Shown in pieces: positions 12,161-58,286 of a stretch of 64,000 nucleotides of DNA. The DNA lies in NCBI GenBank assembly GCA_020724585.1, contig DYGS01000001.1:287832-351831 (forward strand), written 5' to 3'. The notes beneath the pieces were generated by a model. It was not told where the DNA came from, ran no database searches, and saw only the letters and a program-made list of their open reading frames with translations. The stretch is from Candidatus Microgenomatus sp. (GTDB lineage Bacteria > Patescibacteriota > Microgenomatia > UBA8517). Position 1 is the stretch's first letter. Each line of letters starts with the position of its first letter. Made by a program: the position numbers and the translations under genes.

Positions 12161-13195
12161 ATGTCAATAAAAACAATTAAAGTATATTTCTCCTCAGGTG
12201 TTCATAGTGGTCTTGATGCTACCCGTGGAATTGGTGCAAATACCAGTGAAATGGTAAAGGCTTTAGATAAAACAGCTGGAATTACTATAGTAAATAACCC
12301 AAATGAGGCCAATGTTGTGCATTACACAAAATTTAATCCATTTTTCATTAGTATTCCATTTTTTAAACCGACTAATCAGAAGTGGTTTCTAACAATTCAT
12401 GATTTGATCCCACTTATATATCCAAAACATTATCCATCGGGAGTCAAAGGCTATATAAAATTTTTAATTAACAAATTTTTAGTTTGGAAAAACATTGATG
12501 TAATCGTTACAATTTCTGAAACTTCAAAAAAAGATATTTGTAGATTTTTAGGTGTAAAACCTGAAATAGTGAAAGTTATCTATATTGCGCCTAAAGAGTC
12601 GATCAAAAAACTAAAAGGCGGTTCGTGGGAAGAAGAAATAAGAAAAAAATTTAATTTACCTGATAAATTTATTCTTTTTAATCATGGACTAAATTACAAT
12701 AAGAACCTAAAAACTCTAATTGAGGCATGTAACAGATTAAAATTTCCTCTAGTTGCAATCGATGAAGATACAAAAAATGTCGATAAATTAGATTTAAATC
12801 ACCCTGAATTAAGACATTTGAAAGGTGTTGATTTTTCAAAAGTAATAAGACCAGGTTATGTTTCTGATGAAGACTTAAACAAACTTTTTAATATGGCCTA
12901 TCTTTGTGTTCAACCCTCTTACTATGAAGGTTTTGGTATGCCACCAATAGAAGCAATGACGGTTGGTTGCCCTGTTATTTGTTCAAAAACCCAGGCTTTG
13001 GTAGAAGTTTGTGGAGATGCTTGTTTGTATTTTGATCCCAATAGCCCTGATGATTTAGTTGAAAAAATAAAATTGATTCAAGAAGATACAAAGTTGAGGC
13101 AGGAATTAATAAAAAGAGGTTATAAGCAGGCTAAAAAATATTCTTGGGAAAAAACTGCCAGAGAAACAATATCTTTATATGAAAAAGTTGTATAA
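12161..13195 (+). CDS. Glycosyltransferase family 4 (GT-B, group 1)
   Basis: 'EGFGMPPIEAMTVGCPVICSKTQALVEVCGDACLYFDP' is the GT4 E-x7-E region. Confidence 0.75.
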   Translation: MSIKTIKVYFSSGVHSGLDATRGIGANTSEMVKALDKTAGITIVNNPNEANVVHYTKFNPFFISIPFFKPTNQKWFLTIHDLIPLIYPKHYPSGVKGYIKFLINKFLVWKNIDVIVTISETSKKDICRFLGVKPEIVKVIYIAPKESIKKLKGGSWEEEIRKKFNLPDKFILFNHGLNYNKNLKTLIEACNRLKFPLVAIDEDTKNVDKLDLNHPELRHLKGVDFSKVIRPGYVSDEDLNKLFNMAYLCVQPSYYEGFGMPPIEAMTVGCPVICSKTQALVEVCGDACLYFDPNSPDDLVEKIKLIQEDTKLRQELIKRGYKQAKKYSWEKTARETISLYEKVV

Positions 13196-14330
13196 CTCTT
13201 TAGTATTTAAATTCATAATTTGGAGGGTTGTCTTAATTTTTGCGGCATTTTTGGCAATAACATACATTCCAATCTTTAGTGATAATTTTTTCGGCGGCAA
13301 GTATATTAATTATTCCCAAAATCCACTTCTCTGGACTTGGGCCAATTTCGACGGAGAACACTATTTATCAATTGCACAAAATGGGTATAAAAGTTTACAG
13401 CAGGCTTTTTTCCCTTTGTATCCATTATTTATTCGTTTTTTTGCATTTGGAGGAACAAGTGAAAATTTGATGCCATTTTTGGTGAGCGGACTCATTTTAT
13501 CTAATCTATTTTTTTTAGTTTCTCTATTTTTTTTAGAAAAAGTAATAAATTTAGATTACGATCAAAAGACCTCAAATTTAGCTGTATTATTACTTTTATT
13601 TTTCCCTACATCTTTTTTCTTCGGTGGCATATACACAGAATCGTTATTTTTTTTATTATCCCTAGCTACATACTATTTCTATAGAAAAGAAAGATATTTT
13701 CTATCTTTAGTTTTTGGAATATTAACCACACTAACGAGATTTTTGGGCCTGTTTGTTATATTGATGATTGTTATTGACCTGATTGTTAAGAAGACAAGTT
13801 TAATTAAAATAATTCAAAATAAAATCTATTTAGTTTTTCTTTCTGGAATAGGACTATTTGGATATATGTATTATTGTTTTGTTAAGTGGGGTGATGCCCT
13901 CGCTTTTTTTAATTTACAAACTCTATCAGGCGAACAAAGATCGACAAATTTAATATTACTGCCGCAAGTCTTTTATAGATATTTTGCAAAAATAATACCT
14001 AACTTGAATTTTGATTATTTTCCATTTGTTTTTACTATCTTTTTAGAAATCTCGATAGCAACTCTTTTTTTGATACTACTCATTTTTTCGTTCAAAAAGG
14101 TTCGTTGGGATTATTGGTTTTATATGTTGTCGAGTTATATGATTCCAACGCTAACCGGAAGTTTTTCTTCACTTCCGAGATATGTTTTGGTCATTTTTCC
14201 AACATATATTGTGATGGCGAGTTACCTAAAAAGTAAAAATAAATTTCTGACTTTCTGTATTTTGGCAGTTTTAGCTATAATTAGCATTATTGCCCAGTCT
14301 CTTTTTGTCAGAGGATATTTTATAAGCTAG
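13179..14330 (+). CDS. GT-C-like membrane mannosyltransferase (PIG-V/GT87-like)
   Basis: 'FDGEHYLSIAQNGYKSLQQAFFPLYPLFI' motif typical of PIG-V/DUF2029-type polyprenol-phosphate-sugar-dependent transferases; many TM helices. Confidence 0.5.
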   Translation: MKKLYNSLVFKFIIWRVVLIFAAFLAITYIPIFSDNFFGGKYINYSQNPLLWTWANFDGEHYLSIAQNGYKSLQQAFFPLYPLFIRFFAFGGTSENLMPFLVSGLILSNLFFLVSLFFLEKVINLDYDQKTSNLAVLLLLFFPTSFFFGGIYTESLFFLLSLATYYFYRKERYFLSLVFGILTTLTRFLGLFVILMIVIDLIVKKTSLIKIIQNKIYLVFLSGIGLFGYMYYCFVKWGDALAFFNLQTLSGEQRSTNLILLPQVFYRYFAKIIPNLNFDYFPFVFTIFLEISIATLFLILLIFSFKKVRWDYWFYMLSSYMIPTLTGSFSSLPRYVLVIFPTYIVMASYLKSKNKFLTFCILAVLAIISIIAQSLFVRGYFIS

Positions 14331-14336
14331 ATATAT

Positions 14337-15008
14337 ATGAAAATTGCAATCGTATTGCCTGTTTTTAATGAAGAGAAACATATAGAGAATGTATTAAAGA
14401 ATCTTGCCAAAAGTAAGCTTACTATTATTGCAGTTGATGATGGAAGCAAAGACATGAGTTCTCAAAAACTCAAAGGAAAAATTCCAAAAATCAAAGTTCT
14501 AACCCACAAGGTTAATTTAGGCAAGGGTTCAGCAATGAAGACAGGTTGCGAATATGCATTTAATAATGGTTATGATGCAGTAATTTTTATGGATTCAGAC
14601 GGTCAACATTCTATAAATGATTTGCCTAAATTTATAGAAAAACTTGAAACAGAAAAATTTGATATTGTTTTTGGTTCAAGAAATTTAGGTTTAGATATGC
14701 CTTTAATTAGATTTCTAGGTAATAAGTTTGCTTCAGTTTTTGTCAATTTGTTATTTGGAATTTATGTTTCAGATCTATTAAGCGGTTATAGAGCTATAAC
14801 TAAAAAAGCTTACCAAAAAATAAAATGGGAGTCTCAAGGATATGGCGTTGAAACTGAAATGGTAATAAAGACAAAGCAGGAAAAACTTAAATACACCGAG
14901 GTGCCAATTGAAACTATATATTTAGATGGATTTAAAGGGGTTTCGATACTAGATGCTTTTGGAATACTTCTTAATGTAGTTTATTGGAGATTAAAAAGAT
15001 ATAATTGA
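14337..15008 (+). CDS. GT2 polyprenol-phosphate glycosyltransferase (DPM1/GtrB-like)
   Basis: 'IAIVLPVFNEEKHI...AVDDGSKD...DSDGQH'. Confidence 0.7.
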   Translation: MKIAIVLPVFNEEKHIENVLKNLAKSKLTIIAVDDGSKDMSSQKLKGKIPKIKVLTHKVNLGKGSAMKTGCEYAFNNGYDAVIFMDSDGQHSINDLPKFIEKLETEKFDIVFGSRNLGLDMPLIRFLGNKFASVFVNLLFGIYVSDLLSGYRAITKKAYQKIKWESQGYGVETEMVIKTKQEKLKYTEVPIETIYLDGFKGVSILDAFGILLNVVYWRLKRYN

Positions 15009-15013
15009 TAATT

Positions 15014-15346
15014 ATGATACTAGGTTTACAAATAACAGGAATATTATTTTCGTTAGCAATGATTTATTTTGCTCTGCTTCACTACAAGAAGGATAATTTA
15101 AATAGTTTAGAGATTGCTTCATGGATAACGATTTGGGTTCTTGTTATTTTAATTGTAATTTTTCCTGAAATAGTTAGGGCTTATGCAGCTAGTATTGCAG
15201 TATCAAGAGTTCTAGATCTTTTAATTGGCGGTGCTTTTATAGTTATATTTATAATGGTTGGGAGTGCCTATATTAGAGTTAATAAATTAGAAAAAAAACT
15301 TGAAGATTTGGTTAGAAAGTTGGCCATTAAGGATAAAAAAGCGTAA
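15014..15346 (+). CDS. Small membrane protein (DUF2304-like) coupled to the GT2 gene
   Basis: Three TM helices plus a C-terminal coiled-coil 'LEKKLEDLVRKLA'. The ATG at 15014 follows the upstream stop; the track start 15005 is TTG. Confidence 0.45.
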   Translation: MILGLQITGILFSLAMIYFALLHYKKDNLNSLEIASWITIWVLVILIVIFPEIVRAYAASIAVSRVLDLLIGGAFIVIFIMVGSAYIRVNKLEKKLEDLVRKLAIKDKKA

Positions 15347-15401
15347 CAAATGTTTTCTTGGCATAAAGAAACTTTTGTTTATTACATCGGATTAATTGTA
15401 A

Positions 15402-16154
15402 ATGACAAATTCTAAAAATTACTATTTATTTCTTGATGAATCTGGACATCATGGACTCAAAAATATAAATACAGAATTTCCAATTTTTTTATTGTGTGGG
15501 TGTTTAATATCCGAAGATGACTATGTCCATCTTAAGAAAAAAATAAATACGATCAAGGCTAAATACTTTGGGACAAAGGATTTGATTTTACACTCAACGG
15601 ATATTAGAAAATGGCAAAAAGAATTCAAAATTTTAGGAGACTTAAGGCTACGGAACGATTTTTATAATGATTTAAACAAAATAATTGATAATACGAACTT
15701 TACAGTAATATCGTCGGCAGTGATAAAAGAAGATCTAGTAAAACAATATGGGCCACAAGCAAGTAACCCATATGAGATATCATTATCTTTTATATTGGAT
15801 AGAGTAATAATGTTTTCAGACAAAAACGATAATGCAAATATTAAGTTAATTGTAGAATCAAGAGGTAAAAAGGAGGATTCTCAGTTGCATAGTCAGTATC
15901 AATTAATTTTAAATAATGGCACCATTAACAATATGAGTCAAAAGTTCAAGGATACATTTATAGATATTGATTTTAAGAAAAAGAAAGACAATGAAATTGG
16001 CACTCAATTATGTGATTTAATTGCTTATCCGTTAGCCACAAAGGTGATATTTCCAGATAGAGTTAATTTTGCCTTTAATCTAATTGAAAAGAAGCTTTAT
16101 AAGCAGTTTGAGAATGGTGATTATATCGAATATGGATTGAAAATATTTCCTTAA
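15402..16154 (+). CDS. DUF3800-family protein (uncharacterised)
   Basis: N-terminal 'YYLFLDESGHHG' matches the DUF3800 'DESG' start; 250 aa. Stand-alone gene with its own upstream AT-rich region. Confidence 0.5.
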   Translation: MTNSKNYYLFLDESGHHGLKNINTEFPIFLLCGCLISEDDYVHLKKKINTIKAKYFGTKDLILHSTDIRKWQKEFKILGDLRLRNDFYNDLNKIIDNTNFTVISSAVIKEDLVKQYGPQASNPYEISLSFILDRVIMFSDKNDNANIKLIVESRGKKEDSQLHSQYQLILNNGTINNMSQKFKDTFIDIDFKKKKDNEIGTQLCDLIAYPLATKVIFPDRVNFAFNLIEKKLYKQFENGDYIEYGLKIFP

Positions 16155-16162
16155 AAAACAAA

Positions 16163-16197: not shown

Positions 16198-16219
16198 CAA
16201 TAGATATATTATACTAAAA

Positions 16220-17011: not shown

Positions 17012-17685
17012 AAATTTCAGTTATTTTGCCTACTAGAAACGAAGAAGCTCTTATCAGAGGAACTCTTATGGATATATCAAGATATTTGAACTCTAAGAAA
17101 TATCGATATGAAATTTTAGTTGTTTTAAATGGTTGCACTGATAATACTGAGAAAATAGTTAGAAAATTAACTTTAAAAAATAGAAGTATTAAGATTTTAA
17201 AATCAAAACCCGGTTATGGCACAGCGCTTAAAAAAGGTATGCAAGTTGCAAAGGGCGATTATATAGCTGTATTTAATGTTGATTTTTATGATCTTGATTT
17301 AATTAAGTTAATAGATGTAAATATGTGTGGTAAGGACATGATAATCGGGTCAAAAATGTCCTTTTGGTCAGTGGATAATAGATCAATGGTTAGAAAAATG
17401 ATTTCTAAAATTTATAACCTTTATCTTAAGTTGTTTGTCGGGTTTAATGGTTCAGATACGCACGGAATTAAGTTGGTGAAAAGCTATCCACTTAAAACAG
17501 TTTTAAAAAAGTGTAGAACAAGTAGCGGAATAATGGACACCGAGTTTGTTATTCGTTTTCAACGCCTTGGCTTTAAAATAATGGATTTTCCTGTTGTAGT
17601 TGAGGAAAAAAGATTGCCAAGGTTCACAGGAAGACTTTTACAGACGCCAATCGACATAATTGAATTACATAAAGCATTAAAATGA
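17008..17685 (+). CDS. Glycosyltransferase family 2 (DPM/GtrB-like)
   Basis: 'ISVILPTRNEEALI...NGCTDNT'. Confidence 0.65.
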   Translation: MKISVILPTRNEEALIRGTLMDISRYLNSKKYRYEILVVLNGCTDNTEKIVRKLTLKNRSIKILKSKPGYGTALKKGMQVAKGDYIAVFNVDFYDLDLIKLIDVNMCGKDMIIGSKMSFWSVDNRSMVRKMISKIYNLYLKLFVGFNGSDTHGIKLVKSYPLKTVLKKCRTSSGIMDTEFVIRFQRLGFKIMDFPVVVEEKRLPRFTGRLLQTPIDIIELHKALK

Positions 17686-19322
17686 ACAGAATATATCTAT
17701 TTTTTGAAAAACATAGCTTTATTGTTTCTTTAGCTGCTATTTTTATTGTCGGTTTTGGAATCTTAAAAATGCCTTGGCAACTTGTTGATGATGGTAAAAG
17801 TGCACAAATTTCACAAATTTTAACTGATTCATTCCTTAATAAGGACATAAAATCTTTTTTAGGTGGTTTAGTTGAACCACAAAGTGGGAGATTTAGACCA
17901 CTTTATTGGATTTATTTATGGTTTACATTTCTTGTTTTTGGGTACCAACCACTTGGACATTACATTCTTCACCTGGTTTTATTTATAACAACTGTATGGT
18001 TAGTTTTTAGATTAATTCTTATGGGCGGTGGTTCTCGAAAGGCTGCTATTATAGGATCAAGTCTATTTGCAATTGACTGGAGAATATTGGAAAATTGGTA
18101 TCGTTTGGGTCCACAGGAACCATTACAAACACCTTTATTACTTGGATCAATATATCTTTTTTTGAAACAACGAAATACTAAGAACAAATTTCAATTAGCT
18201 TGGTCTATTGTATTAATCATCTTGGCAATGTTTCTTAAAGAGACAAATATTGCTTTTGTAGCTATCCCCATTTACTTATTAATATCTGATTTGATTTTAA
18301 AAAATAAATTACACATAAGAAATGATTGGATTTATTTTTTCTTTACTTTAATGGGCGTAATTATTTCAAGATTTATTGCAAGTAGTATTTATCCTGTCTC
18401 TGGTTATGGTTCACTTTATATGATAAAGCTAGATTTCATTATAAGTAATTTAAATTCTTATGTTGAAATGATCAGGGCAAGTTATAGCCCTTTAATTGAA
18501 ATAATAATTGCTTATTTTGTAATAAGTATCTTCTTATTGTTTATTAAAAAAGGATACAAAGAAATTTTATCAACCTACTACTTTGCTGGGCTTTTCGGAA
18601 CATTCTTTATTTCTTTTTTTGTTATCCAACTACCATGGGGTTTTACTGTAGGCAGATATCTTTTGACTGCATTTTCCGGATCCTTTATAGCTCTGTCACT
18701 AGTAGGTGAAAGACTCTTTTCGCTGTTTGACAAAGCAAATAGGGATAGCGATAGGAGTGGTGATAAAGCGTCGAACCTATTTTTTTACATGATTAGATTT
18801 TCAGTAATTTTGCCACTCGTTTTAGTGATTTTTTATAACTTAATTATGTCCTTTAATTATATTTCTTGGGTTACAAAAGTAGGCAATTTTAATGACAGAT
18901 TTATAAAACAAATTGTAAAAAGTACACCTGAAAACGGAAGAGTGTTTTTAAATGTTGTACACGATGATAATGAAGAATTGGAATTATTTGTAGAGATAAG
19001 ATGGCACTTTGATTATTTTTACAATCGAAAGGATATTGTTTTAGATTACCTGCCCGAAAATTTAAATCTGAAGCCAGAAGACTTAGTTGTAGTACATACC
19101 TCGGCCCCACTTGTAAGCATTGATAAACTCAACCAAAATAAACAATTGGAATTTGTCACGAAGGATTACATCAATATTGAAAATGTTGTACTAGCCGGCC
19201 CTTTAGGTTTTCTTAAAGAAGGTGGTAAGCTTTTGACTGCTGTTTCTAGCGATAAATTTGTCAATAACTTTTATTCTATTGGAAAGTATACATATGAGTG
19301 GAACATATATAAAGCAAAATAA
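17682..19322 (+). CDS. GT-C membrane glycosyltransferase (ArnT/PMT-like)
   Basis: Twelve or more predicted TM helices, with an N-terminal loop 'RFRPLYWIYLWFTFLVFGYQPLGHYILHL' typical of the ArnT-like family. Confidence 0.5.
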   Translation: MNRIYLFFEKHSFIVSLAAIFIVGFGILKMPWQLVDDGKSAQISQILTDSFLNKDIKSFLGGLVEPQSGRFRPLYWIYLWFTFLVFGYQPLGHYILHLVLFITTVWLVFRLILMGGGSRKAAIIGSSLFAIDWRILENWYRLGPQEPLQTPLLLGSIYLFLKQRNTKNKFQLAWSIVLIILAMFLKETNIAFVAIPIYLLISDLILKNKLHIRNDWIYFFFTLMGVIISRFIASSIYPVSGYGSLYMIKLDFIISNLNSYVEMIRASYSPLIEIIIAYFVISIFLLFIKKGYKEILSTYYFAGLFGTFFISFFVIQLPWGFTVGRYLLTAFSGSFIALSLVGERLFSLFDKANRDSDRSGDKASNLFFYMIRFSVILPLVLVIFYNLIMSFNYISWVTKVGNFNDRFIKQIVKSTPENGRVFLNVVHDDNEELELFVEIRWHFDYFYNRKDIVLDYLPENLNLKPEDLVVVHTSAPLVSIDKLNQNKQLEFVTKDYINIENVVLAGPLGFLKEGGKLLTAVSSDKFVNNFYSIGKYTYEWNIYKAK

Positions 19323-20352
19323 CATATCAACTGAATCTAAAAGTATTTTAAAATTCTTAAATCTGTTGTGGAGTGTTAATTATAAAATTTTCCCTTCATT
19401 GGTTGTGATTGCAATTTTATTTTCATTAATAGAAGGCGTTACATATCAAGGTTTTGTTGCTAAATATTTTTTGGTTGACATAAAGTTGATAATTATACTT
19501 GTTGCAATGTCAGGTTTATTTGTGTTTTTACATGCAAAAAACAAAAGTTCAGTAACCCCTGAAAGCTATATTTTTCTTAAGAATTTGTTAAATATATTAA
19601 TTATTGCGTTTTTACTCGTTACTTATTTACTTTATCTAAAGTTACCCTCAGCAAGAAATTCAATATATTTTGGTAGTAACAACCTGGTTTATCCTAACAG
19701 GTTTTTAATAGCATCTTTAATGTCTGTATATTATTTTATAATATATTATCTTTGTTTTGGGAAAATCAATTTACCGTTTCAATCCAAAATTACAAAGTTA
19801 GATACGCAAGGTATTATGTACACATTATTTTTGATAGGTGCGATTTTATGGACTTTGTCAACGAGTGCAATAAAAGATCTTTACATATTCAAAGTCAATG
19901 TAATACCTATTATTCGAAATGCCGGCGCTACCTATGATTGGAAAGTCAGATCACAAATAGGGCCTATATTTGATTACTATAAATTTGTGGTTAATAATAC
20001 TCCTGAATCAGCATTGATATTGGGTCCAAAACAGCAGGGTCAGTGGCCAGATGTGAGCAATCAAGGCTTTACTAGATATTTTGTTTATCCAAGGAATTTA
20101 ATTTCAGAAGATTTTGAAGGATTTAAAAAACAATCTCCAACCTTCGCCTTTTTAATAGGAGGAAGGAAATTACATGATAATAGCCTGCAGAATCGTTGGC
20201 CGGATTTTTATATACCAGCTAAAAAGATCATTTTCTATCCAAACGATAAAGATGGTAAAACAATAGAAGTCTATGGTGACTATAATCCCAAAAAAGTTGT
20301 TTATCCTGATTATTGGGGGATAATAGAAATTGATAACGCACGATGGAAGTAA
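19294..20352 (+). CDS. Polytopic membrane protein (hypothetical, possibly GT-C-like)
   Basis: ORF with many hydrophobic segments. ATG at 19294 preceded by GGAAAG (the track's 19258 is TTG). Overlaps the upstream gene by 29 nt. Confidence 0.45.
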   Translation: MSGTYIKQNNISTESKSILKFLNLLWSVNYKIFPSLVVIAILFSLIEGVTYQGFVAKYFLVDIKLIIILVAMSGLFVFLHAKNKSSVTPESYIFLKNLLNILIIAFLLVTYLLYLKLPSARNSIYFGSNNLVYPNRFLIASLMSVYYFIIYYLCFGKINLPFQSKITKLDTQGIMYTLFLIGAILWTLSTSAIKDLYIFKVNVIPIIRNAGATYDWKVRSQIGPIFDYYKFVVNNTPESALILGPKQQGQWPDVSNQGFTRYFVYPRNLISEDFEGFKKQSPTFAFLIGGRKLHDNSLQNRWPDFYIPAKKIIFYPNDKDGKTIEVYGDYNPKKVVYPDYWGIIEIDNARWK

Positions 20353-21653
20353 TAATCGGAATCATATTTACGACAATGTTTGGCTTATCGCTTGTAAATT
20401 TAATGCAAGTGAGAATAAGTGTGCTTGGAAAAATGGCTCTTTCCTATTTACTGGGATTAGGTCTTCAAACATTAATAATGTTTTATTTGGCTGTCTTACA
20501 TATAAAATTAACCGCTTTAAATGTAACAATTGCTGTTCTTATCCCAACGCTACTTATTATCTTATTAAATGTTTTATTTAAGAAGAAATTTTTATCAAAT
20601 GTTAACTTGAATTTTAAGAAGCTCAATTTTGTCGAAAAGTTAATGATTGTAATATTTTTTGGATTAGCAGCATATGTGTTGGCGGCGGGTATATACTGGC
20701 CGGTAGTTGGGTGGGATTCAATTGCTTTATATGATTTTAGAGCTAAAGTATTTTCAATAACTGGATATATGGATGATGCTATCAGAAGAGGTTATTTTTT
20801 TGGGTATCCTCTTATGACGAGCATGGCTCATACTTGGATTTATATTTTAGGTGGTCATTATCCAAAGTTTCTATACTCACTTATGTATATAAGTTTTGGA
20901 CTATTATTTTATGAGTTTTCCCAAAAATGGGCAAACAGAACAATTGCAATGGTTTTTACTATTATTTCAATGACAGCATATCCAATTTTTGCGCAAGCAG
21001 CTTACGATTATACAAATGTTCCTTACACAATTTATTTCTTTATCAGCTCGGCGGCGCTGTTTTATTGGACAACAACGAATGAAAAAAAATGGTTGATTGT
21101 TTCTGCTTTGATGATGGGTATTGCGACCTGGATTAGAAGCACTGATCCGTTTTGGATCGTTAATATAATTGTTATAGTGTGGTGGAGTATTAAAAACAAG
21201 TCAATTTCCCCAATTCTTATTTACATATTATTTTTTCTACCAATACAGCAATCCTGGAACCTATTTATAACGAAAATGTCCCCATCTGTATCCAGCCAAT
21301 CTTTATTGGCAGGTGGTTTCAGTGTATTGGTAAGCAAACTTGACTTGAATCGACTAGCCCAAACATCTTCGTTTGTTATTCAGGTATTATTTTCGATGCT
21401 TATTCCTTATTCGATCTTATTATTAATATCACTAACCATGGCAAAAAAGAAGATTCTAGATACATTTTATTTCCTTTTAATTCTTTTTGGAAACATTTCG
21501 CTGTTGTTTGTCGGTGCTTATATATTTAGTTATATATGGGAAGGTTGGGGGTTGATTGGCGAGTCTTTGGGACGAATGGGATCAGTGTTTATTCCTCTCT
21601 TTACTTTTGCAGCAGCAATAAATTTAAACGAAAAGGTGATTTACAAAAAATGA
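20343..21653 (+). CDS. Polytopic membrane protein (hypothetical, possibly GT-C-like)
   Basis: 436-aa ORF, about 12 TM helices, 'YWPVVGWDSIALYDFRAKVF'. Confidence 0.45.
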   Translation: MEVIIGIIFTTMFGLSLVNLMQVRISVLGKMALSYLLGLGLQTLIMFYLAVLHIKLTALNVTIAVLIPTLLIILLNVLFKKKFLSNVNLNFKKLNFVEKLMIVIFFGLAAYVLAAGIYWPVVGWDSIALYDFRAKVFSITGYMDDAIRRGYFFGYPLMTSMAHTWIYILGGHYPKFLYSLMYISFGLLFYEFSQKWANRTIAMVFTIISMTAYPIFAQAAYDYTNVPYTIYFFISSAALFYWTTTNEKKWLIVSALMMGIATWIRSTDPFWIVNIIVIVWWSIKNKSISPILIYILFFLPIQQSWNLFITKMSPSVSSQSLLAGGFSVLVSKLDLNRLAQTSSFVIQVLFSMLIPYSILLLISLTMAKKKILDTFYFLLILFGNISLLFVGAYIFSYIWEGWGLIGESLGRMGSVFIPLFTFAAAINLNEKVIYKK

Positions 21654-22597: not shown

Positions 22598-23290
22598 ATG
22601 AAAAAAGATTTATATTATTCTGTAAAGCCAATGAAGACTTATGATTCATGGTTGAGTGGTTTGCTAAATAAGTTTACAAGAAATTATACACGTGAGGAAA
22701 TTGCAGCAAGTTTTAATTTAAGTGGAAAAAGTTGCTTAGATATAGCTTGTGGAGATGGCGATCTGATAAATAATTATTTAAGTGGTAGGTATATCGAGGC
22801 CACGGGTATTGACATTTCTCCGAAATTAATTAAACAGGCAAAGTTAAGAAAGGCCAACAACGCCTTTTTTAAAGTTGGGGATATTGATCAGTTTGTTGAC
22901 CAGATGGTTATACAGGGGAAGAAGTATAATGATATTTACTTACTCGCTATATTGGAGCATATTCAGTGGCCAACAATTTTTATTAAAAAGCTAACAAAAA
23001 TATTAGATAAACAAGGGCGAATTATAATTGAAGTACCCAATTCTGTCTGGCTGCCACACAGATTAAGCATGGTTCTTGGTAAATTCCCGGTTACTGCGCC
23101 AACAGTTGGAGTAATTCCCGGGGTTTTTGATGAACATATACGCTTTTTTACCCATAAAACACTAAATAAAATTATGAAAGATACAGGTTTTAAGTTATTA
23201 AAAACAGACTGTTCGGGGAAGTTTAGATTTATTAAGAAACTATATCCAAGCTTATTTTCGCCTGATATTGTCGCAGTTTATGAAAAGTAA
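22598..23290 (+). CDS. Class I SAM-dependent methyltransferase
   Basis: 'CLDIACGDGDLI' motif I. Confidence 0.65.
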   Translation: MKKDLYYSVKPMKTYDSWLSGLLNKFTRNYTREEIAASFNLSGKSCLDIACGDGDLINNYLSGRYIEATGIDISPKLIKQAKLRKANNAFFKVGDIDQFVDQMVIQGKKYNDIYLLAILEHIQWPTIFIKKLTKILDKQGRIIIEVPNSVWLPHRLSMVLGKFPVTAPTVGVIPGVFDEHIRFFTHKTLNKIMKDTGFKLLKTDCSGKFRFIKKLYPSLFSPDIVAVYEK

Positions 23291-36600: not shown

Positions 36601-36604
36601 ACAT

Positions 36605-48879: not shown

Positions 48880-49251
48880 TTATCCGGCGCCGAGTAGGAA
48901 GAACAAAATGGCGCTCAGGATAAGCTTGCTCTGATTGACCACTCCTTCTGCGGTGACCGAGTTCGCCATTCCTTGAGCGAGTTTCAGCGAAATCCATTCC
49001 CAAAGCGGGAGGAGTCCCAGAAAGACACCGAGGAATAGCGCGTAGCATCCACAGCCAGAGCGTCGTGCGTCCTTGCTCACTATTGTGACGATGATGCCGA
49101 TGACCATGAACACGACCCAGATCCACCACGACGCCTTGAAAAACCATGTCTCAACGGCGACGAGTTGATCGAGGTAGTTATCCCACCAGATGACTCCGGT
49201 GAGGTTGTCTTGCGCCATGAACAGCGCAATCAAAGCGGACAGGTAACTCAT
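48880..49251 (-). CDS. Small integral membrane protein encoded by a GC-rich (foreign-looking) segment
   Basis: ATG at 49251 with GGAGG 4 nt upstream; 3–4 hydrophobic segments. The roughly 400-bp segment 48867..49270 is markedly more GC-rich, with GCG/CGC/GGC codons, than everything around it. Confidence 0.55.
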   Translation of the reverse strand: MSYLSALIALFMAQDNLTGVIWWDNYLDQLVAVETWFFKASWWIWVVFMVIGIIVTIVSKDARRSGCGCYALFLGVFLGLLPLWEWISLKLAQGMANSVTAEGVVNQSKLILSAILFFLLGAG

Positions 49252-49357
49252 TTTGCCTCCAATGTGCAAGTTAAATTTAGTCTTTATAAGACTATGGGGT
49301 GTAGTGTACAGAGAGAGAGAGTAAAAGTCAAGTTCGGTATGATAAAATCAATTTAAT

Positions 49358-53422: not shown

Positions 53423-54601
53423 ATGATGACAAGTAATTATAAAAAGACAATAATTGTTTTCAACAAAGTAGCTATAGTATATGACAGGGTGAATAAGTTT
53501 GGGGGGGCAGAGAGGGTTTTATTAACTCTTCATGAGATGTTTCCTGATGCTCCTCTTTATACTTCTGTTTATGATAAAAAAAATGCATCTTGGGCCTCAT
53601 GTTTTCCTAAAATTTATACCTCATTTTTACAGAAATTTAAATTTGTACGAAATCATCACGAATTGTTTGGTTGGCTAATGCCAATTGCGTTTGAGCAGTT
53701 TGATTTTAGTCAATATGACTTGGTTATTTCAGTAACTAGCGAGGCGGCAAAAGGTATTATTACTTTACCTAAAACAAAACACATATGTTATATGCTTACT
53801 CCAACAAGATATTTATGGAGCGGATATGATTTTTATTTAAATAATCCACCAAATATATTTAAATATATTCCTTTTTTTAAGTTATTATCAAAGCCTATTT
53901 TGGGATATTTAAGGTGGTGGGATAAAGTTGTTGCCAAGAGACCTGACAAAATTATCGCAATTTCAACAGAAGTTCAAAAAAGAATTAAAAAATATTATAA
54001 CCTTGAAAGTGAAATAATATTTCCTCCCGTCGATTTGCGGCATTTTAAAAAATCGCTCGTTGGAGGGCTCCGCTCAGAGAGTCGAGCAGCCGCTCGCAAT
54101 TTTTTGGAAAATGCCTATTCAAATAATTATTATTTTATTCATGGCCGGTTTGAACCATATAAAAAACTAGATTTGATACTTTCAATTTTTAAGAAGAATA
54201 AATTGCCTTTAGTTGTTTCAGGTAGTGGATCAGAATTTGAGAGGCTCAAAACAAATAGGTACAAAAACATTAAATTTATATCAAAGCCAAATGATCAAGA
54301 ATTAATAAATTTATATCAAAATGCAAAAGCATTTTTAATGCCGCAAGAAGAAGATTTTGGTATAACATCAGTCGAAGCTCAAGGCTTTGGCGTTCCCGTC
54401 ATTGCATATAATAAAGGTGGAAGTTTAGATACAATAATTGACGGGAAGACTGGAATATTGTTTAATGACCAGACTGTCGAGAGTTTATCAAAAGCAATTG
54501 AAAAATTTGACAGGACCAGCTTTGATAAGCAATACTTAATGACTAACGCAAAACGCTTTAGTAAAGAAAGGTTTATAAAAGAATTTATTAATATTTTATG
54601 A
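53423..54601 (+). CDS. Glycosyltransferase family 4
   Basis: 'EEDFGITSVEAQGFGVPVIAYNKGGSLDTIIDGKTGILF'. TAGAAT -10-like box about 60 nt upstream. Confidence 0.7.
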   Translation: MMTSNYKKTIIVFNKVAIVYDRVNKFGGAERVLLTLHEMFPDAPLYTSVYDKKNASWASCFPKIYTSFLQKFKFVRNHHELFGWLMPIAFEQFDFSQYDLVISVTSEAAKGIITLPKTKHICYMLTPTRYLWSGYDFYLNNPPNIFKYIPFFKLLSKPILGYLRWWDKVVAKRPDKIIAISTEVQKRIKKYYNLESEIIFPPVDLRHFKKSLVGGLRSESRAAARNFLENAYSNNYYFIHGRFEPYKKLDLILSIFKKNKLPLVVSGSGSEFERLKTNRYKNIKFISKPNDQELINLYQNAKAFLMPQEEDFGITSVEAQGFGVPVIAYNKGGSLDTIIDGKTGILFNDQTVESLSKAIEKFDRTSFDKQYLMTNAKRFSKERFIKEFINIL

Positions 54602-55653
54602 TTCCTGTAATAATTTGTGGTGGATTTGGTACTAAATTGTGGCCGGTAAGCCGTGAGCACAGACCTAAACATTTTATAAAACTTCTTGGCGATAAATCTT
54701 TGTTTCAATTGAATTATGAAGCTCTTTTAACCAGATTTAAAGCGCGCGAAATTTATGTTTCGACAAATCAAAATCAAGTTGATTTTGTCGAAAAACAAGC
54801 TCCTGATATACCTAAAGAGAATTATATAGTTGAGCCGGAAATGAGAAATCAAGGACCAGCTACGGGCCTAATTGCGGCCTTTTTGTACAAAAAGGGGCTA
54901 GCCGATGAGCCGTTTATGATTATTCAAGTTGATGATCTTCGCGAACCGACCGAAAAGTTTATTGCAATGATGGACGAGTGTGATAAATTAACAAGAGTTG
55001 ATTCCAGATATATCACAGGAGGAATTAAACCTAAGTTCCCGGTTATGGGTGTTGACTATCTTATTAAGGGCGAACAGGTTAATAGTAGCAGTATAGGCGT
55101 TTATAAGGTCAAGGAGTTTGTCTGGAGGGGGAGCAAAGAGCAGACTGAGGAGTTATTAAAAAATCCCGACATTTTAATTCATGCTAATCACACATGTATG
55201 ACCCCCAATAATATGCTCTTGCTTTTTAAAAAGTATAAACCTGATTGGTATGAGCCTCTTGCAAATTATATAAATGGCAAAGATCTAAATATAGAATATC
55301 TTAAAATGCCCCCTGGACCGCTTGAGGATATTACCCAGAAAGTTTATGAATCAGGCGAATCTTTAGTTATTGAATTGCCTTTTGAATGGCATGATTTTGG
55401 CACATTTGAAGCGATTGATGAATATCTTAGAAGCAGGAATTTATATAATGTTGGTGAAAACATAGTTGATGTTGACGGCGAATCAAATTTCATAAGACTT
55501 GATGATCCAAATAAAATTGTTGCTCTTGTAGGGGTTGATAATTTGGTTGTTATTGATACAGGGGATGTTTTATTAATTACCAACAAAAAAGCAAGCGGCA
55601 AAGTTGGCGAAGTATTAAAAGAGGTCAAAAAAAGAAAGTTATCTCTTACTTAA
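54598..55653 (+). CDS. manC: Mannose-1-phosphate guanylyltransferase (nucleotidyltransferase, ManC/CpsB-like)
   Basis: 'IPVIICGGFGTKLWPVSREHRPKHF' matches the NTP-transferase GGxGxRLWP motif. Confidence 0.7.
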   Translation: MIPVIICGGFGTKLWPVSREHRPKHFIKLLGDKSLFQLNYEALLTRFKAREIYVSTNQNQVDFVEKQAPDIPKENYIVEPEMRNQGPATGLIAAFLYKKGLADEPFMIIQVDDLREPTEKFIAMMDECDKLTRVDSRYITGGIKPKFPVMGVDYLIKGEQVNSSSIGVYKVKEFVWRGSKEQTEELLKNPDILIHANHTCMTPNNMLLLFKKYKPDWYEPLANYINGKDLNIEYLKMPPGPLEDITQKVYESGESLVIELPFEWHDFGTFEAIDEYLRSRNLYNVGENIVDVDGESNFIRLDDPNKIVALVGVDNLVVIDTGDVLLITNKKASGKVGEVLKEVKKRKLSLT

Positions 55654-55665
55654 AAAATTCTTAAT

Positions 55666-56316
55666 ATGTATTACGAAGTAATAAAAAGAACAATGGATAT
55701 TGTCGGCTCAATTGTAGCCATTATTATTTTTTCTCCAGTTATGCTTATAACTGCAATCATCATAAAACTCACATCTGACGGGCCAGTTTTAGTTGAGCCT
55801 GAAAATGCGCATTTAAGAAGACTTGGTAAAAACGGCAAGCCTTTTAGACTTTATAAATTTAGATCAATGTTTGTTAACGCCGATGCCACGCTAGAGCGCG
55901 ATCCAAAATACAAAAAACTTTACAAAGAATACAAGGAGAGTAACTATAAACTTTATAGAGATCCGAGAGTCACGCCGATCGGAAAATTTATTAGAAAATA
56001 CTCAATCGACGAGACACCCCAGTTTTTTAATGTTTTAAAGGGGGAAATGAGTTTGGTCGGACCCAGACCGTATCATGAAGACGAACTAATCGAGCAGCAG
56101 CAAAAATATCCGGGGACGGAAAAGTTCGTCAAAGAAATGCATAAAGTGAAGCCTGGTATTACCGGGTATTGGCAGGTTTCGGGAAGAAGCAGTATAAATT
56201 TTGATAAAAGAATTGAAATGGATGCCTACTATGCAAGAAAAAAATCTATTTTATTTGACATTTTGATTCTTCTCAAAACACCTTGGGCTATGATAAGCGG
56301 CAAAAATGCCGTATAA
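55666..56316 (+). CDS. Polyprenyl-phosphate sugar phosphotransferase (bacterial sugar transferase, WbaP/PglC-like); the glycan-priming enzyme
   Basis: 'KRTMDIVGSIVAIIIFSPVMLI' TM helix and 'YKFRSM...VGPRPY' motifs. Confidence 0.8.
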   Translation: MYYEVIKRTMDIVGSIVAIIIFSPVMLITAIIIKLTSDGPVLVEPENAHLRRLGKNGKPFRLYKFRSMFVNADATLERDPKYKKLYKEYKESNYKLYRDPRVTPIGKFIRKYSIDETPQFFNVLKGEMSLVGPRPYHEDELIEQQQKYPGTEKFVKEMHKVKPGITGYWQVSGRSSINFDKRIEMDAYYARKKSILFDILILLKTPWAMISGKNAV

Positions 56317-56330
56317 TTTTTTAATAAATT

Positions 56331-58286
56331 ATGGATAATAACTCTGCCGTTTTGATACCTAAAATTGAACCTAATGATAATTCCAATAGCGACGGGACTG
56401 TTGTTGAAGTTAAAAAAAAGAACAAATACAAAAAACCGCTTTTGATATCAGGAATAATTATGGCCGTAATTTTGGCCCTTTTGGTTCCCATTTTACTTTT
56501 TTATATTCAGGTCAAGAAGGTTTTAGGCAATATTGCTCCAATTGTTGCAGGCCAGTCATATGAGAGCGTTGACAAAATAAGAAGCGATTTTGAAATCGTT
56601 AGAAAGAATGTAGCCGATTTAAAAAAATCTTATGTTTTAATTTCATGGATGAGGTTTGTGCCGTTTTTGGGTAAATATGTGTCAGATTTGGGAGACGGAC
56701 TTAATGCTTCAGTTAAAATCTTTGATGCAGGAGAAATTGCTTTTACTACTCTCGACCCTCTGCTTTTAGAGCTTGGTTATAAGGATAGTAAAGAGAAGGA
56801 AACTTCAGAAAAATCTGCACAGGAAAGAATCGATTTTGTGGTAAATTCAATTCCTAGAATTTTTCCGCAAGTTGATCAGATTGTCAAAAATATTCAAGAC
56901 GCAAATTTTTATTTGTCGCGAATTGACCCAAATGACTATCCCGAGAATGTTAGGGGAATACCTGTGAGGGAAAAATTAGACAGCTATCTTGATAAATTTG
57001 AGGAAGCATCAAAATATATCGCCAGGAGTAAGCCATTGCTTGAAAGTACTCCTTATTTACTTGGAGTTGACGGCGATAGAAATTATTTAGTATTGTTTCA
57101 AAACGATAAAGAGCTTCGACCAACGGGGGGTTTTTTAACTGCTTATTCGATAATGAAGGTAAGAGATGCTAAATTTGAGCCTGTAACATCGGACGATATT
57201 TATAATTTAGATTCAAAATACAAACCTTGGCTACCCGCTCCAACTGCAATAGTTGATCTCATAAAAGGCCCTTACATTTTGTCCAAAAACATAAGACTTA
57301 GAGATATGAATTATAGTCCTGATTTTAAAGTTTCAATGGATTTATTTTCCAAAGAGGCGGAAAAGGCGGGTTTAAAAGGGGTTGATGGAATCATTGCAGT
57401 TGATACGCAATTGTTGGTTAATCTTTTGGAAGGGTTGGGAGAGATTGGTGTTCCAGGCTTTGGAAATTATTCGTCTAAAAATGACTCAAGATGTAATTGT
57501 CCTCAAGTTGTCTATGAGCTTGAAAGTTTTGCCGACATTGAAGGTCCGATTATCTGGGATCCTGTAACTGGAAAGATAATTTTAAAGCCGCCAAATTCTG
57601 ATAATAGAAAGAAAATAATTGGGCCTCTAATGAATTCTATTTTGGCAAATGCGATGGCTCAGCCAAAAGAAAAATTGCCAAATCTTATAAATTTAATTTT
57701 TAAATCAGTTACGGAGAAGCATGTTTTATTTTACCTTCATGATCAAGGTGCCCAAAAAGCAGTTGAAGATTTTGGTATTGCGGGAAGGATAGTTGATTAT
57801 CCTGGTGATTATCTTCACATATCCGACTCAAATTTAGGAGGTCGAAAGTCAAATTTATATGTAACTCAGGAAGTTGAACAGGAAATATCTGTAAATGGCG
57901 ACGGTTTAATTCAGAAAACTCTCACTTTAACTTATAAAAATCCTGAAAAACATGATGGATGGCTAAATTCGGTTCTCCCCAATTGGGTACGGGTTTATGT
58001 TCCAAAAGGAAGTAAACTTATTGACTCAAGCGGTCTTGAAAAGCAATATGATGTAGATGAGGATTTGGGAAAAACGGTTTTTTCGGGGTATTTTAAATTA
58101 AGGCCGGAAGGCGTTTCAAAGGTTTCATTTACTTATACTCTGCCATTTAAAAAAGGTACAGGTGATTTTAAAATATTGATCCAAAAACAACCGGGAGTTA
58201 ATGCTCCGCTTTATATTGTTAGAAGTCAAAAGTCGGAAGAGGAGTTTTTGCTAAATACTGACAAAGAAATAAAGATCAAATTGTGA
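56331..58286 (+). CDS. Large N-terminally anchored extracytoplasmic protein (DUF4012-like), commonly paired with the priming sugar transferase
   Basis: 651 aa with a single N-terminal TM helix. The family assignment is from memory and not certain. Confidence 0.4.
   Translation: MDNNSAVLIPKIEPNDNSNSDGTVVEVKKKNKYKKPLLISGIIMAVILALLVPILLFYIQVKKVLGNIAPIVAGQSYESVDKIRSDFEIVRKNVADLKKSYVLISWMRFVPFLGKYVSDLGDGLNASVKIFDAGEIAFTTLDPLLLELGYKDSKEKETSEKSAQERIDFVVNSIPRIFPQVDQIVKNIQDANFYLSRIDPNDYPENVRGIPVREKLDSYLDKFEEASKYIARSKPLLESTPYLLGVDGDRNYLVLFQNDKELRPTGGFLTAYSIMKVRDAKFEPVTSDDIYNLDSKYKPWLPAPTAIVDLIKGPYILSKNIRLRDMNYSPDFKVSMDLFSKEAEKAGLKGVDGIIAVDTQLLVNLLEGLGEIGVPGFGNYSSKNDSRCNCPQVVYELESFADIEGPIIWDPVTGKIILKPPNSDNRKKIIGPLMNSILANAMAQPKEKLPNLINLIFKSVTEKHVLFYLHDQGAQKAVEDFGIAGRIVDYPGDYLHISDSNLGGRKSNLYVTQEVEQEISVNGDGLIQKTLTLTYKNPEKHDGWLNSVLPNWVRVYVPKGSKLIDSSGLEKQYDVDEDLGKTVFSGYFKLRPEGVSKVSFTYTLPFKKGTGDFKILIQKQPGVNAPLYIVRSQKSEEEFLLNTDKEIKIKL

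Follow-up and report, generated by a model that had tools for sequence, protein, structure and literature searches.

A probable locus of at least 68 kb for the assembly of a cell-envelope glycan, with an unusually dense set of predicted GT-C membrane glycosyltransferases in a Candidatus Microgenomatus genome

Results

Gene content and extent of the locus

The DNA analysed here (64,000 nucleotides of contig DYGS01000001.1 of Candidatus Microgenomatus sp., positions 287,832 to 351,831, in the following called the window) is occupied almost entirely by a cluster of genes for the predicted assembly of a lipid-linked glycan. Genes were taken from the listing of open reading frames (ORFs), and every window ORF of at least 100 amino acids (aa) was scanned with Pfam. 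Between positions 633 and 58286, 57 genes were found, 51 of them on the plus strand. Neighbouring genes overlap or are at most 15 bp apart at 42 of the 56 junctions, and the coding density of this interval is about 99%. Families of glycan assembly account for 38 of the 57 genes (67%), namely 12 proteins of the glycosyltransferase C (GT-C) fold, eight glycosyltransferases of family 2 (GT2) and eight of family 4 (GT4), a Wzx flippase, a Wzy_C ligase/polymerase, a Bac_transf priming enzyme, a nucleotidyltransferase similar to ManC, a DUF2304 (GacJ-type) partner protein and five tailoring enzymes (Table 1). The original prediction, made from the sequence alone, had read the region as a locus for lipid-linked glycan assembly, and the Pfam scans bear this out, since they place the majority of the genes in such families.

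The locus extends past the window start. In the upstream 10 kb of the same contig (L112 1-9869; flanking and comparison loci are numbered with L) glycan genes continue, bringing the total to at least 68 kb, and the bounds first given (12161 to 58286, with an extension back to 657) were too narrow. The five membrane proteins encoded there in two tandem groups belong to PTPS_related and GT87, which we take to be members of the GT-C clan (Pfam clan CL0111). The 550-aa protein that straddles the window start did not match any Pfam family and scored 23.7 bits on the hidden Markov model (HMM) of the PMT_2-type family of 47391; an ORF on the plus strand that overlaps its gene (298-603) is probably spurious. 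The predicted GT-C-type genes thus amount to at least 17 in about 68 kb, or 18 if the 550-aa protein is counted. The locus makes up approximately 9-10% of a contig of 644-744 kb, and the exceptional number of GT-C proteins first noted for such a small genome is supported by a very high density (12 in the window and at least five upstream).

On its 3' side the locus is followed by housekeeping genes (RecO, GlyRS, a 224-aa protein, MraZ and RsmH, according to Pfam), with which the dcw cluster starts. Beyond RsmH, the source contig encodes a penicillin-binding protein, MurE/F, MraY, FtsW and MurG. The GC content of the window ranges from 28 to 37% in 2-kb bins. ARAGORN found no tRNA or tmRNA gene in the window, and a scan of the entire window with Rfam gave no match. 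The largest intergenic gap (42735-43016, 282 bp, also without Rfam match) is located just 5' of the GT4 gene 43017 and may harbour an internal promoter.

Three independent assemblies (JGI 3300029893 Ga0246236_1000003 with 644 kb, Logan SRR5011275 and Logan SRR28264341) have 100% identical DNA over the recovered stretches, and an exact look-up of the window proteins found them on the 744-kb NCBI contig as well. The main structure of the locus is therefore not an assembly artefact; for the same reason, strain-level variation is not visible. In Logan SRR5011275 the locus is split, with one contig ending near 43 kb and another (SRR5011275_11182) starting at about 58.1 kb, while the JGI assembly spans this part. 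The break over 43-58 kb could reflect trouble with coverage or repeats or a hidden strain heterogeneity.

Table 1. Genes and other features of the locus and its flanks. Positions refer to the window unless L112 is given; scores are Pfam bit scores unless stated otherwise. TM, transmembrane helix.
Position	Strand	Assignment	Support
upstream of window (L112)		three tandem PTPS_related proteins	32.7-47.6 bits (cut-off 26.4); QDD/SDD after TM1
upstream of window (L112)		two tandem GT87 proteins	33.8 and 36.9 bits (cut-off 25)
upstream of window (L112)		189-aa protein	
upstream locus edge (L112)		one further GT2	
1..501; L112 8217-9869	-	polytopic 550-aa protein, candidate GT-C-like; N-terminal third in window	~7-8 TM
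633..2282	+	GT-C (PMT_2-type), paralogue a of a four-gene tandem array	PMT_2 16.8; GDE after TM1
2279..3922	+	GT-C (PMT_2/PMT), paralogue b	PMT_2 47.2, PMT 34.9, both above cut-off; WDE motif
3919..4566	+	HD-domain protein, splits the PMT_2 array; passenger or other role	HD 25.8
4563..5918	+	GT-C (PMT_2), paralogue c	PMT_2 34.3; WDE motif
5909..7540	+	GT-C (PMT_2), paralogue d	PMT_2 54.2; WDE motif
7530..8405	+	GT2	Glycos_transf_2 67.8
8407-9063	-	AbiEii toxin-like nucleotidyltransferase of a toxin-antitoxin/defence-like pair	AbiEii 46.5
8999-9322	-	DUF6922 partner of the same pair	DUF6922 45.2
9367..10095	+	short-chain dehydrogenase, possible sugar-modifying enzyme	adh_short 118.8
10129..11670	+	VKOR-DHODH fusion, 513 aa, non-glycan passenger	VKOR 91 (aa 8-130), DHO_dh 174.8 (aa 198-497)
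12161..13195	+	GT4	Glycos_transf_1 99.9; L087 orthologue
13179..14330	+	GT-C, PIG-V/Mannosyl_trans2-type; putative extracytoplasmic enzyme of a GacI/J/L-like module	Mannosyl_trans2 40.7 (cut-off 22.4); ~7 TM
14337..15008	+	short soluble GT2, candidate polyprenyl-phosphate-sugar synthase (PpgS/GacI-like)	Glycos_transf_2 90.4
15005..15346	+	DUF2304, small 3-TM protein (GacJ/Rv3632 family), putative activating partner of 14337	DUF2304 69.9
15402..16154	+	DUF3800 protein, lineage-specific insertion	DUF3800 67.1; absent at same L087 junction
16220-17011	+	GT2, 5' of memA in L087	Glycos_transf_2 109.2
17008-17685	+	GT2, 5' of memA in L087 (with 16220, directly)	Glycos_transf_2 62.9
17682..19322	+	memA: GT-C, divergent PMT_2-type	
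19294..20352	+	memB (also numbered 19258): ~5 TM and conserved C-terminal soluble domain; candidate accessory subunit	
20343..21653	+	memC: GT-C fold protein	Pfam matches of homologues; AlphaFold2 (AF2) model
21658..22587	+	soluble 309-aa protein, no family, syntenic partner of trio	L087 orthologue 47%, same position
22598..23290	+	S-adenosylmethionine (SAM) methyltransferase (tailoring)	Methyltransf_23 67.1
23268..24428	+	GT4	Glycos_transf_1 109.5
24430..25131	-	weak methyltransferase-like gene, lineage-specific insertion	Methyltransf_3 19.2, Methyltransf_24 19.5, both below cut-off; absent in L087
25177..26649	+	GT-C (PMT_2-type)	PMT_2 23.6, E 6.7e-5, below cut-off
26674-27210	+	SocA/Panacea antitoxin-domain protein, toxin-antitoxin-like insertion	SocA_Panacea 70.8; absent in L087
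27207-27596	+	129-aa partner of 26674	absent in L087
27598..28932	+	membrane protein, 10 TM, unclassified	ADD after TM1; absent in L087
28981..30261	+	Wzx-type flippase	Polysacc_synt 86.8; L087 orthologue 52%
30240..32018	-	AsnB-type glutamine amidotransferase (tailoring)	Asn_synthase 274.7, GATase_7 151.1
32059..32886	+	GT2	Glycos_transf_2 55.5
32892..35381	+	P-type cation ATPase, passenger	E1-E2_ATPase 178
35371..36600	+	GT-C (PMT_2)	PMT_2 32.6
36575..37516	+	GT4	Glycos_transf_1 107.1
37491..38729	+	memD: GT-C, distant member of 47391/PMT_2 family	31.5 bits, E 2e-10, on 47391-family HMM built without 37491
38726..39556	+	GT2, ~2 C-terminal hydrophobic segments (GtrB-like architecture), directly 5' of 39553	Glycos_transf_2 115.3
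39553..40863	+	GT-C (PMT_2)	PMT_2 28.1; LDE after TM1
40865..41923	+	GT4	Glycos_transf_1 80.6
41920-42384	+	GNAT acetyltransferase	Acetyltransf_1 77
42381-42734	+	DUF5674 protein	DUF5674 97.6
43017..44156	+	GT4	Glycos_transf_1 119.5
44143-44739	+	hexapeptide-repeat acetyltransferase	Hexapep 50.1
44736-45257	+	173-aa 2-TM protein	no family match
45238..46164	+	GT2	Glycos_transf_2 85.3
46139..47422	+	Wzy_C protein of O-antigen ligase, polymerase or O-oligosaccharyltransferase type	Wzy_C 42.1 (cut-off 31.7); ~9-10 TM
47391..48809	+	memE: GT-C (PMT_2 family), first gene of conserved 3' block	
48880..49254	-	GC-rich orphan, 124 aa, 3-4 TM	~53% GC (genome 31%)
49358-50557	+	GT4, conserved core	Pfam
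50560-51396	+	GT2, conserved core	Pfam
51393-52499	+	GT4, conserved core	Pfam
52492-52845	+	117-aa protein	no family
52873-53283	-	TrpR-like regulator, splits conserved GT4-GT4 junction	Trp_repressor 34.4
53423..54601	+	GT4, conserved core	Glycos_transf_1 92.9; 47-71% identity in relatives
54598..55653	+	ManC-like sugar-1-phosphate nucleotidyltransferase	NTP_transferase 49.2, ManC_GMP_beta-helix 36.6
55666..56316	+	small phosphoglycosyl (priming) transferase	Bac_transf 209; 49-80% identity in relatives
56331..58286	+	DUF4012 membrane-anchored protein, conserved final gene of 3' block	DUF4012 72.2
58283..62236	+	housekeeping flank (RecO to RsmH)	Pfam

Membrane glycosyltransferases

Thirteen membrane proteins had originally been called GT-C-like, and 12 of these calls were supported, the exception being memB. 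Five proteins (2279, 4563, 5909, 35371 and 39553) are at or above the gathering score of PMT_2 and one (13179) is at or above that of PIG-V. With the PMT model only 2279 passes the cut-off (34.9 versus 22.7 bits), 4563 (22.5) and 5909 (21.7) are just under it, and the other GT-C proteins gave no match. The description of ten of these proteins as similar to ArnT or PMT thus holds at the level of fold and clan, but no ArnT or Pmt equivalog was found. The longest ORFs of three of the genes start at 633, 5909 and 47391 instead of 657, 5915 and 47415.

The first four genes form a tandem array, in which 633 is linked to 2279, 4563 and 5909 by phmmer E values of 1e-26 to 1e-44. The array members share only 28-37% amino acid identity, which indicates old and maintained duplications. 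The family of memE (47391) comprises 2,593 cluster representatives at E<=1e-3, and PMT_2 is matched by 30 and PMT by 15 of the 33 aligned members. Its profile was aligned to that of the PMT_2 paralogues over 413 columns (hhalign 98.8%, E 1e-16), and memD (37491) is related to 47391 with a phmmer E value of 9e-7. L087 (GCA_034680565.1), a comparison locus for 12161-30261, encodes orthologues of 13179 (41% identity) and of 25177 (555 aa, 43% identity, with a PMT_2 match and an additional N-terminal TM helix). The N-terminal part that is absent from 25177 coincides with the methyltransferase-like gene on the minus strand (24430-25131), which is inserted in this lineage only.

All 12 GT-C proteins are polytopic, with six to ten hydrophobic segments according to a Kyte-Doolittle analysis, a crude measure that under-calls. 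An acidic motif (DE, DD, PE or D) is present in every GT-C candidate, either about 10-30 residues after TM1 or N-terminal, e.g. FDGEHY in 13179, SDAAKY in 25177, WPE in 35371, GPEQ in 37491 and RQADTA in 47391; its position in the first extracytoplasmic loop is predicted. Seven polytopic proteins (six of the supported GT-C candidates and 27598) gave no match in NCBIfam except for Agl23 with 15.6 bits for 47391, and nothing useful was returned by searches of the PDB sequences with 17682, 20343, 47391, 27598 and 21658, either with single sequences or with profiles. For 27598, nothing was found in Pfam, NCBIfam or PDB, and its single sequence reached less than 7% with hhalign against the GT-C profiles; this protein could be a Wzy-type polymerase or another GT-C.

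Three membrane proteins, memA, memB and memC, are encoded by consecutive genes with overlapping stop and start codons, an order that is kept in three relatives (L087, L088 and L113). Homologues of memA and memC co-occur on eight contigs. For memA (17682), PF13231 was matched by 3 of 12 full-length homologues, in which W32 and the sequence V35-D36-D37-G38-K39-S40 (VDDGKS) after TM1 are invariant; hhalign gave 81% against the PMT_2 paralogue profile, and the score on the 47391-family HMM was 15.8 bits. The GT-C assignment of 17682 and 25177 is weaker than that of the other GT-C proteins of the window. In the AF2 model of memC (20343) the fold consists of helices throughout, 12 or more of them long, and the likeness to ArnT is restricted to the fold level (12-14% identity). 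No match in Pfam or NCBIfam was obtained for memB, which reached 15% and 0.4% with hhalign as a GT-C; its structure model has a low confidence, which limits the weight of this negative result. The 309-aa protein encoded downstream (21658) did not match any entry of Pfam, NCBIfam or PDB. The conserved order suggests that the trio is a multi-subunit enzyme, in which memB may supply acceptor binding. Complexes with acceptor-binding partners have been speculated for small GT-C enzymes (PMC8035078).

Cytoplasmic transferases and pathway genes

Three components of a Wzx/Wzy pathway (Bac_transf, Polysacc_synt and Wzy_C) are all present with scores above the respective cut-off, which confirms the first assignment of 28981 as flippase, 46139 as ligase or polymerase and 55666 as priming transferase. 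A homologue of 46139 is found 5' of memE in L051. Eight GT2 proteins (7530, 14337, 16220, 17008, 32059, 38726, 45238 and 50560; 55-115 bits, cut-off 23.3) and eight GT4 proteins (12161, 23268, 36575, 40865, 43017, 49358, 51393 and 53423) exceed the gathering score. The earlier count of at least 16 is thereby reached for the window, while only 15 of them are located within 12161-58286, the interval for which it was given. Among the tailoring enzymes, the amidotransferase (30240), one methyltransferase (22598) and the two acetyltransferases (41920 and 44143) were identified as predicted; the second methyltransferase (24430) remained below threshold.

The best NCBIfam match of the short GT2 14337 is PpgS (full length, 106.9 bits), followed by AglJ and dolichyl-phosphate hexose transferase. 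GacJ is a DUF2304 protein, as is the neighbour of 14337, and GacJ and Rv3632 bind and stimulate GacI and PpgS, respectively (10.1101/180810). GT2 and GT-C genes are adjacent or overlapping in 13179-14337-15005, 17008-17682, 38726-39553 and 5909-7530, the first two of which are kept in L087.

Conservation in related genomes

For the 3' part of the locus, 80 species-representative genomes were compared in the 10-kb region upstream of GlyRS. Among the 56 loci for which 6 kb or more of this region was available, 35 have Bac_transf, DUF4012 and RecO together. The full series memE-GT4-GT2-GT4-GT4-ManC-Bac_transf-DUF4012-RecO-GlyRS was found in the same order in 13 loci, including Woese-, Levy- and Microgenomatus representatives, and shorter versions in Roizman-, Ames- and Shapirobacteria; MraZ adjoins the block. 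The order GT4-GT2-GT4 is the same in L008, L010, L014, L027, L072 and others. From this comparison of sequences, 47391-58286 (about 11 kb) is considered a core operon at the level of the class, joined to the division cluster, and not an accessory element.

The segment 12161-30261 is collinear with L087 at 35-58% amino acid identity. Both share the order GT4, PIG-V, GT2, DUF2304, GT2, GT2, memA, memB, memC, 309-aa protein, methyltransferase, GT4, PMT_2 and Wzx. Missing from L087 are DUF3800, the methyltransferase-like gene on the minus strand, the Panacea pair and 27598; two epimerases and other genes are present instead. In L088, L113 and L114 the trio or parts of it are kept and at least five GT-C-type proteins are encoded per 20 kb, but the tailoring genes differ (radical SAM, cupin, dehydratases and methyltransferases). 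No toxin-antitoxin (TA) or defence family of Pfam was matched in the 20-kb neighbourhoods of these four relatives. By sequence comparison, the locus thus appears to combine a conserved backbone with tailoring genes and passenger insertions that are specific for the lineage.

The flanking genes are most closely related to those of CP011214.1 (Woesebacteria GW2011_GWF1_31_35), e.g. memE with 66%, DUF4012 with 67% and MraZ with 73% identity. For memE, DUF4012, RecO, the 224-aa protein and MraZ together, the identity to this genome is 61-73%. GlyRS (58835-60199) is discordant, being 75% identical to CP066686.1 (Candidatus Woesebacteria) and 67-69% to Levybacteria, but only 51% to CP011214.1, which suggests a replacement of GlyRS or two GlyRS lineages within Microgenomates.

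Inserted genes

Several genes of the window appear to be passengers or insertions. The family assignments originally made for AbiEii (8407), Panacea (26674) and DUF3800 (15402) were all confirmed. The TA and defence-like genes had been said to have accumulated inside the locus; DUF3800 and the Panacea pair indeed appear to be insertions, as judged from their absence in L087, but PADLOC returned AbiEii (30.7 bits) as the sole match to a defence model, and no match for its DUF6922 partner, DUF3800, the Panacea pair or the GC-rich orphan. The AbiEii pair, DUF3800 and the Panacea pair are scattered singly at 8.4, 15.4 and 26.7 kb and are not clustered.

The gene with foreign composition was found to be part of a compositional island, as predicted; the reading frame first proposed (48839-49147, minus strand) gave no matches, and the plausible frame is the one listed in Table 1. 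It is located within an insertion of 549 bp (48810-49357) between memE and GT4, a junction of at most 10 bp in L008, L014, L027 and L072. A perfect inverted repeat of 14 bp, similar to a terminator, lies at 48815-48862 on the memE side. For the orphan, no relatives were found in Pfam, NCBIfam, PADLOC, phages, plasmids or IMG/VR, and no called gene is on record. A known structured RNA was ruled out, since Rfam gave no match for the island. The segment was recovered in the JGI contig only, the recovered Logan contigs covering just the flanking parts, and may stem from assembly chimerism.

The VKOR-DHODH fusion is encoded between the AbiEii pair and the first GT4. VKOR and DHODH normally pass electrons to quinones, and with both domains being quinone-linked, the fusion is odd in a genome of the candidate phyla radiation (CPR). 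It may mean that electrons take an uncommon path in the synthesis of pyrimidines or the formation of disulfides. The best relatives of the P-type ATPase share only 38% identity and were found outside glycan contexts in a pattern scan of metagenomes. The arrangement with the TrpR-like gene is common only to L057 (JBBTWD010000002.1, 1321-1731; 64% identity), the other relatives having no TrpR gene between these two GT4 genes; the protein may act as a local regulator for the core operon of this sub-lineage.

Discussion

The window is likely to hold the greater part of a locus for envelope glycan assembly that spans at least 68 kb and in which a Wzx/Wzy-type pathway is combined with many extracytoplasmic GT2/GT-C modules and with inserted passengers. 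Family and fold membership, gene order, conservation and insertions were shown by the sequence comparisons. In the pathway proposed from these data, Bac_transf (55666) would prime polyprenyl phosphate, with a nucleoside diphosphate sugar provided by the ManC-like enzyme. GT4 and GT2 proteins would lengthen the unit in the cytoplasm, where the amidotransferase and the methyl- and acetyltransferases are expected to tailor it, before Wzx (28981) flips it and the Wzy_C protein (46139) links it to further units or to an acceptor. In a second layer, short GT2 proteins would make polyprenyl-phosphate monosaccharides, the clearest case being 14337 and its partner 15005 next to the GT-C 13179. The 12 GT-C proteins of the window, together with at least five more upstream, would move sugars outside the membrane onto glycan, lipid or surface proteins; they appear to be organised partly in old tandem arrays of paralogues and partly in the memA-memB-memC trio. 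Their presumed use of polyprenyl-phosphate-linked donors on the extracytoplasmic face is derived from their family and from the neighbouring PpgS/GacI-like GT2. The passengers inserted in the lineage (AbiEii pair, DUF3800, Panacea pair, GC-rich orphan, P-type ATPase and VKOR-DHODH) would form a third layer. What is predicted from sequence is which donors and acceptors are used, how the layers share the work and what product results. The second layer follows a published scheme, in which a C55-P-monosaccharide is the product of a GT-A enzyme that in some cases has a small membrane partner, a flippase of the GtrA or Wzx type translocates this product and a GT-C transfers the sugar outside (PMC8035078). 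The adjacent GT2 and GT-C genes 17008-17682, 38726-39553 and 5909-7530 fit the same logic as the 13179-14337-15005 module.

Several observations weigh against this reading. About a quarter of the 57 genes (15) lack a link to glycans (HD, AbiEii pair, VKOR-DHODH, the 135-aa protein 11678, DUF3800, Panacea pair, 27598, P-type ATPase, DUF5674, the 173-aa protein, GC-rich orphan, the 117-aa protein and TrpR). The score of 14337 is well under the equivalog cut-off of PpgS (106.9 versus 370 bits), and the other short GT2 proteins (17008, 38726 and 7530) are indistinguishable from ordinary cytoplasmic GT2 enzymes. Candidate donor synthases are far fewer than the GT-C proteins. Pfam did not detect a GtrA-type flippase, a Wzz/PCP co-polymerase or an LCP protein (LytR_cpsA_psr) among the window ORFs, to which the search for Wzz, PCP and LCP was directed, and such genes could lie elsewhere in the genome; no window protein is therefore assigned to attachment or to the flipping of polyprenyl-phosphate monosaccharides. 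One of the 12 GT-C proteins, 25177, begins 22 residues later than its L087 orthologue and is devoid of TM1, and may be truncated at the 5' end or impaired. Finally, the comparison with the relatives is confined to 12161-30261 and the 3' block.

The missing LCP ligase and Wzz, which Pfam did not find in the window, would also fit a different function of the membrane proteins. The GT-C array might consist mainly of Pmt-like O-glycosyltransferases for secreted surface proteins (S-layer, pilins or adhesins), with the Wzy_C protein as an O-oligosaccharyltransferase of the PglL/PilO type, given that the Wzy_C domain is common to O-oligosaccharyltransferases and that the PMT model is passed by 2279, closely approached by 4563 and 5909 and matched by almost half of the aligned 47391 family (15 of 33). 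Pilin glycosylation has been predicted, though not demonstrated, for Saccharibacteria (PMC11623550). We consider this explanation rather unlikely as the main function, since teichoic acids and wall polysaccharides are common targets of PMT_2/GT-C enzymes in monoderm bacteria (PMC8035078), GT87, PIG-V and PTPS_related are enzymes of the glycan or lipoglycan type in known systems, and the locus does not encode any acceptor proteins. It is compatible with the assembly of an envelope glycan and does not exclude it. A reduced repertoire was considered as well: the multiplicity of GT-C proteins might be largely debris, with old duplicates serving as structural or acceptor-binding subunits or decaying, so that their number would overstate the catalytic capacity. 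The lost TM1 of 25177, the members under the Pfam cut-offs and the resemblance of 19258 to a non-catalytic partner point in this direction, but the ORFs are all intact and tightly packed at about 99% coding density, the acidic first-loop motif is kept in every candidate, the divergence of the paralogues (28-37% identity) speaks for old and maintained duplications and the orthologues are conserved in relatives. This makes a largely decaying or non-catalytic array very unlikely.

The original prediction of a highly decorated and probably variable surface layer, in which TA and defence genes accumulate as in a hotspot of phage interaction, concerns the evolution of the locus. Wall polysaccharides are reportedly phage receptors in other monoderm bacteria, and an accessory, hypervariable surface-glycan island under phage pressure would account for the defence-like genes and the foreign DNA. 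It is in line with the absence of DUF3800, the Panacea pair, the methyltransferase-like gene on the minus strand and 27598 from the syntenic L087, with the insertion of the GC-rich gene, with the PADLOC match of AbiEii and with the different tailoring genes of the relatives (epimerases, dehydratases, radical SAM and extra PMT_2). Accessory content of this kind was thus found; the gene order of the 3' block of about 11 kb is, however, conserved throughout the class, the backbone from 12 to 30 kb is collinear at 35-58% identity, and the three assemblies, with their 100% identity, do not reveal any micro-diversity. Furthermore, just one putative defence gene matches a defence model, and TA or defence families of Pfam were matched in none of the four neighbourhoods of 20 kb in relatives. 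An island shaped mainly by phages is consequently regarded as unlikely.

Every component belongs to a known family, and the nearest analogues are the Gac-, Gtr- and Csb-type systems of monoderm bacteria. The multi-component transmembrane systems GtrA/GtrB/GtrC, CsbB-GtcA-YfhO, GacI/GacJ/GacK/GacL and PpgS-Rv3632-Rv3779 resemble the module of short GT2 (14337), DUF2304 (15005) and GT-C (13179), the further GT2/GT-C pairs and the acidic motif in the first loop; the Gac system also shares the presence of a Wzx-type flippase. In contrast to the one to three GT-C proteins per locus in Gtr-, Gac- and Csb-type systems, 12 are encoded here in 58 kb and at least 17 in 68 kb, with far fewer donor synthases than GT-C proteins and no GtrA-family protein in the window, and the genome, that of a CPR bacterium, measures approximately 0.65-0.75 Mb. 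The next analogue is the machinery for arabinogalactan and lipoarabinomannan (LAM) in mycobacteria and corynebacteria (Emb, Aft, PimE/GT87, Mpt, Pmt and Rv3779), which likewise comprises many GT-C families (PMT_2, GT87, PIG-V-like and PTPS_related/YfhO-like), known there to make envelope glycans on the outer side of the membrane from polyprenyl-P sugars, and a donor module of the PpgS-Rv3632 type. Neither Emb or Aft equivalogs nor genes of an arabinose or galactan pathway were seen here, and the genes are combined in one locus, whereas the mycobacterial ones are dispersed. The genome of Mycobacterium tuberculosis is about six times larger than the one studied here.

Loci for Wzx/Wzy-dependent O-antigen, capsule or secondary cell wall polysaccharides have Bac_transf, GT4 and GT2 proteins, Wzx, Wzy_C, an enzyme for the nucleotide sugar and tailoring genes in common with the locus described here. 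They differ from it in that no Wzz/PCP, export or LCP attachment genes were found in the window and in that the 3' block is not a hypervariable serotype cassette but conserved in the class and joined to RecO-GlyRS-dcw. ArnT (GT83) and Pmt (GT39) are similar in the GT-C fold and in PMT_2/PMT of Pfam, but the sequence identity is only 7-14%, MIR domains are absent and an equivalog-level match was not obtained among the proteins tested. ArnT acts on lipid A, an acceptor that a monoderm CPR cell would not be expected to have. What is unusual about the locus is the density of GT-C proteins in a very small genome, their tandem arrays and the trio, and the class-wide linkage to dcw. Full-text searches did not retrieve a paper describing GT-C arrays or PMT expansions in CPR, which is not proof of novelty.

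A more far-reaching conjecture, which we regard as unlikely, is that the main envelope polymer of Microgenomates would be built largely outside the membrane by a set of at least 17 GT-C proteins, resembling that of mycobacteria and encoded in a single super-operon linked to division, with the conserved and translationally coupled memA-memB-memC as a heteromeric complex of two catalytic subunits flanking the acceptor-binding 19294. To our knowledge, a GT-C complex of two catalytic subunits and an acceptor subunit has never been demonstrated.

CPR bacteria (Patescibacteria) are mostly uncultured episymbionts, and their surface chemistry presumably mediates host attachment and phage recognition. 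Glycosylation in this group has been called unexplored (PMC11623550). The locus provides concrete targets, namely the PpgS/GacJ-like pair, the memA-memB-memC trio and the operon from memE to DUF4012, which could serve heterologous biochemistry, the development of glycan-directed probes or lectins, and studies that relate glycan gene content to host range. The interest of the locus lies in its scale and organisation and not in new chemistry. Since part of it is conserved in the class and joined to the division and cell-wall cluster, the finding suggests that the glycan is a core structural component of the envelope of these bacteria and not an optional capsule.

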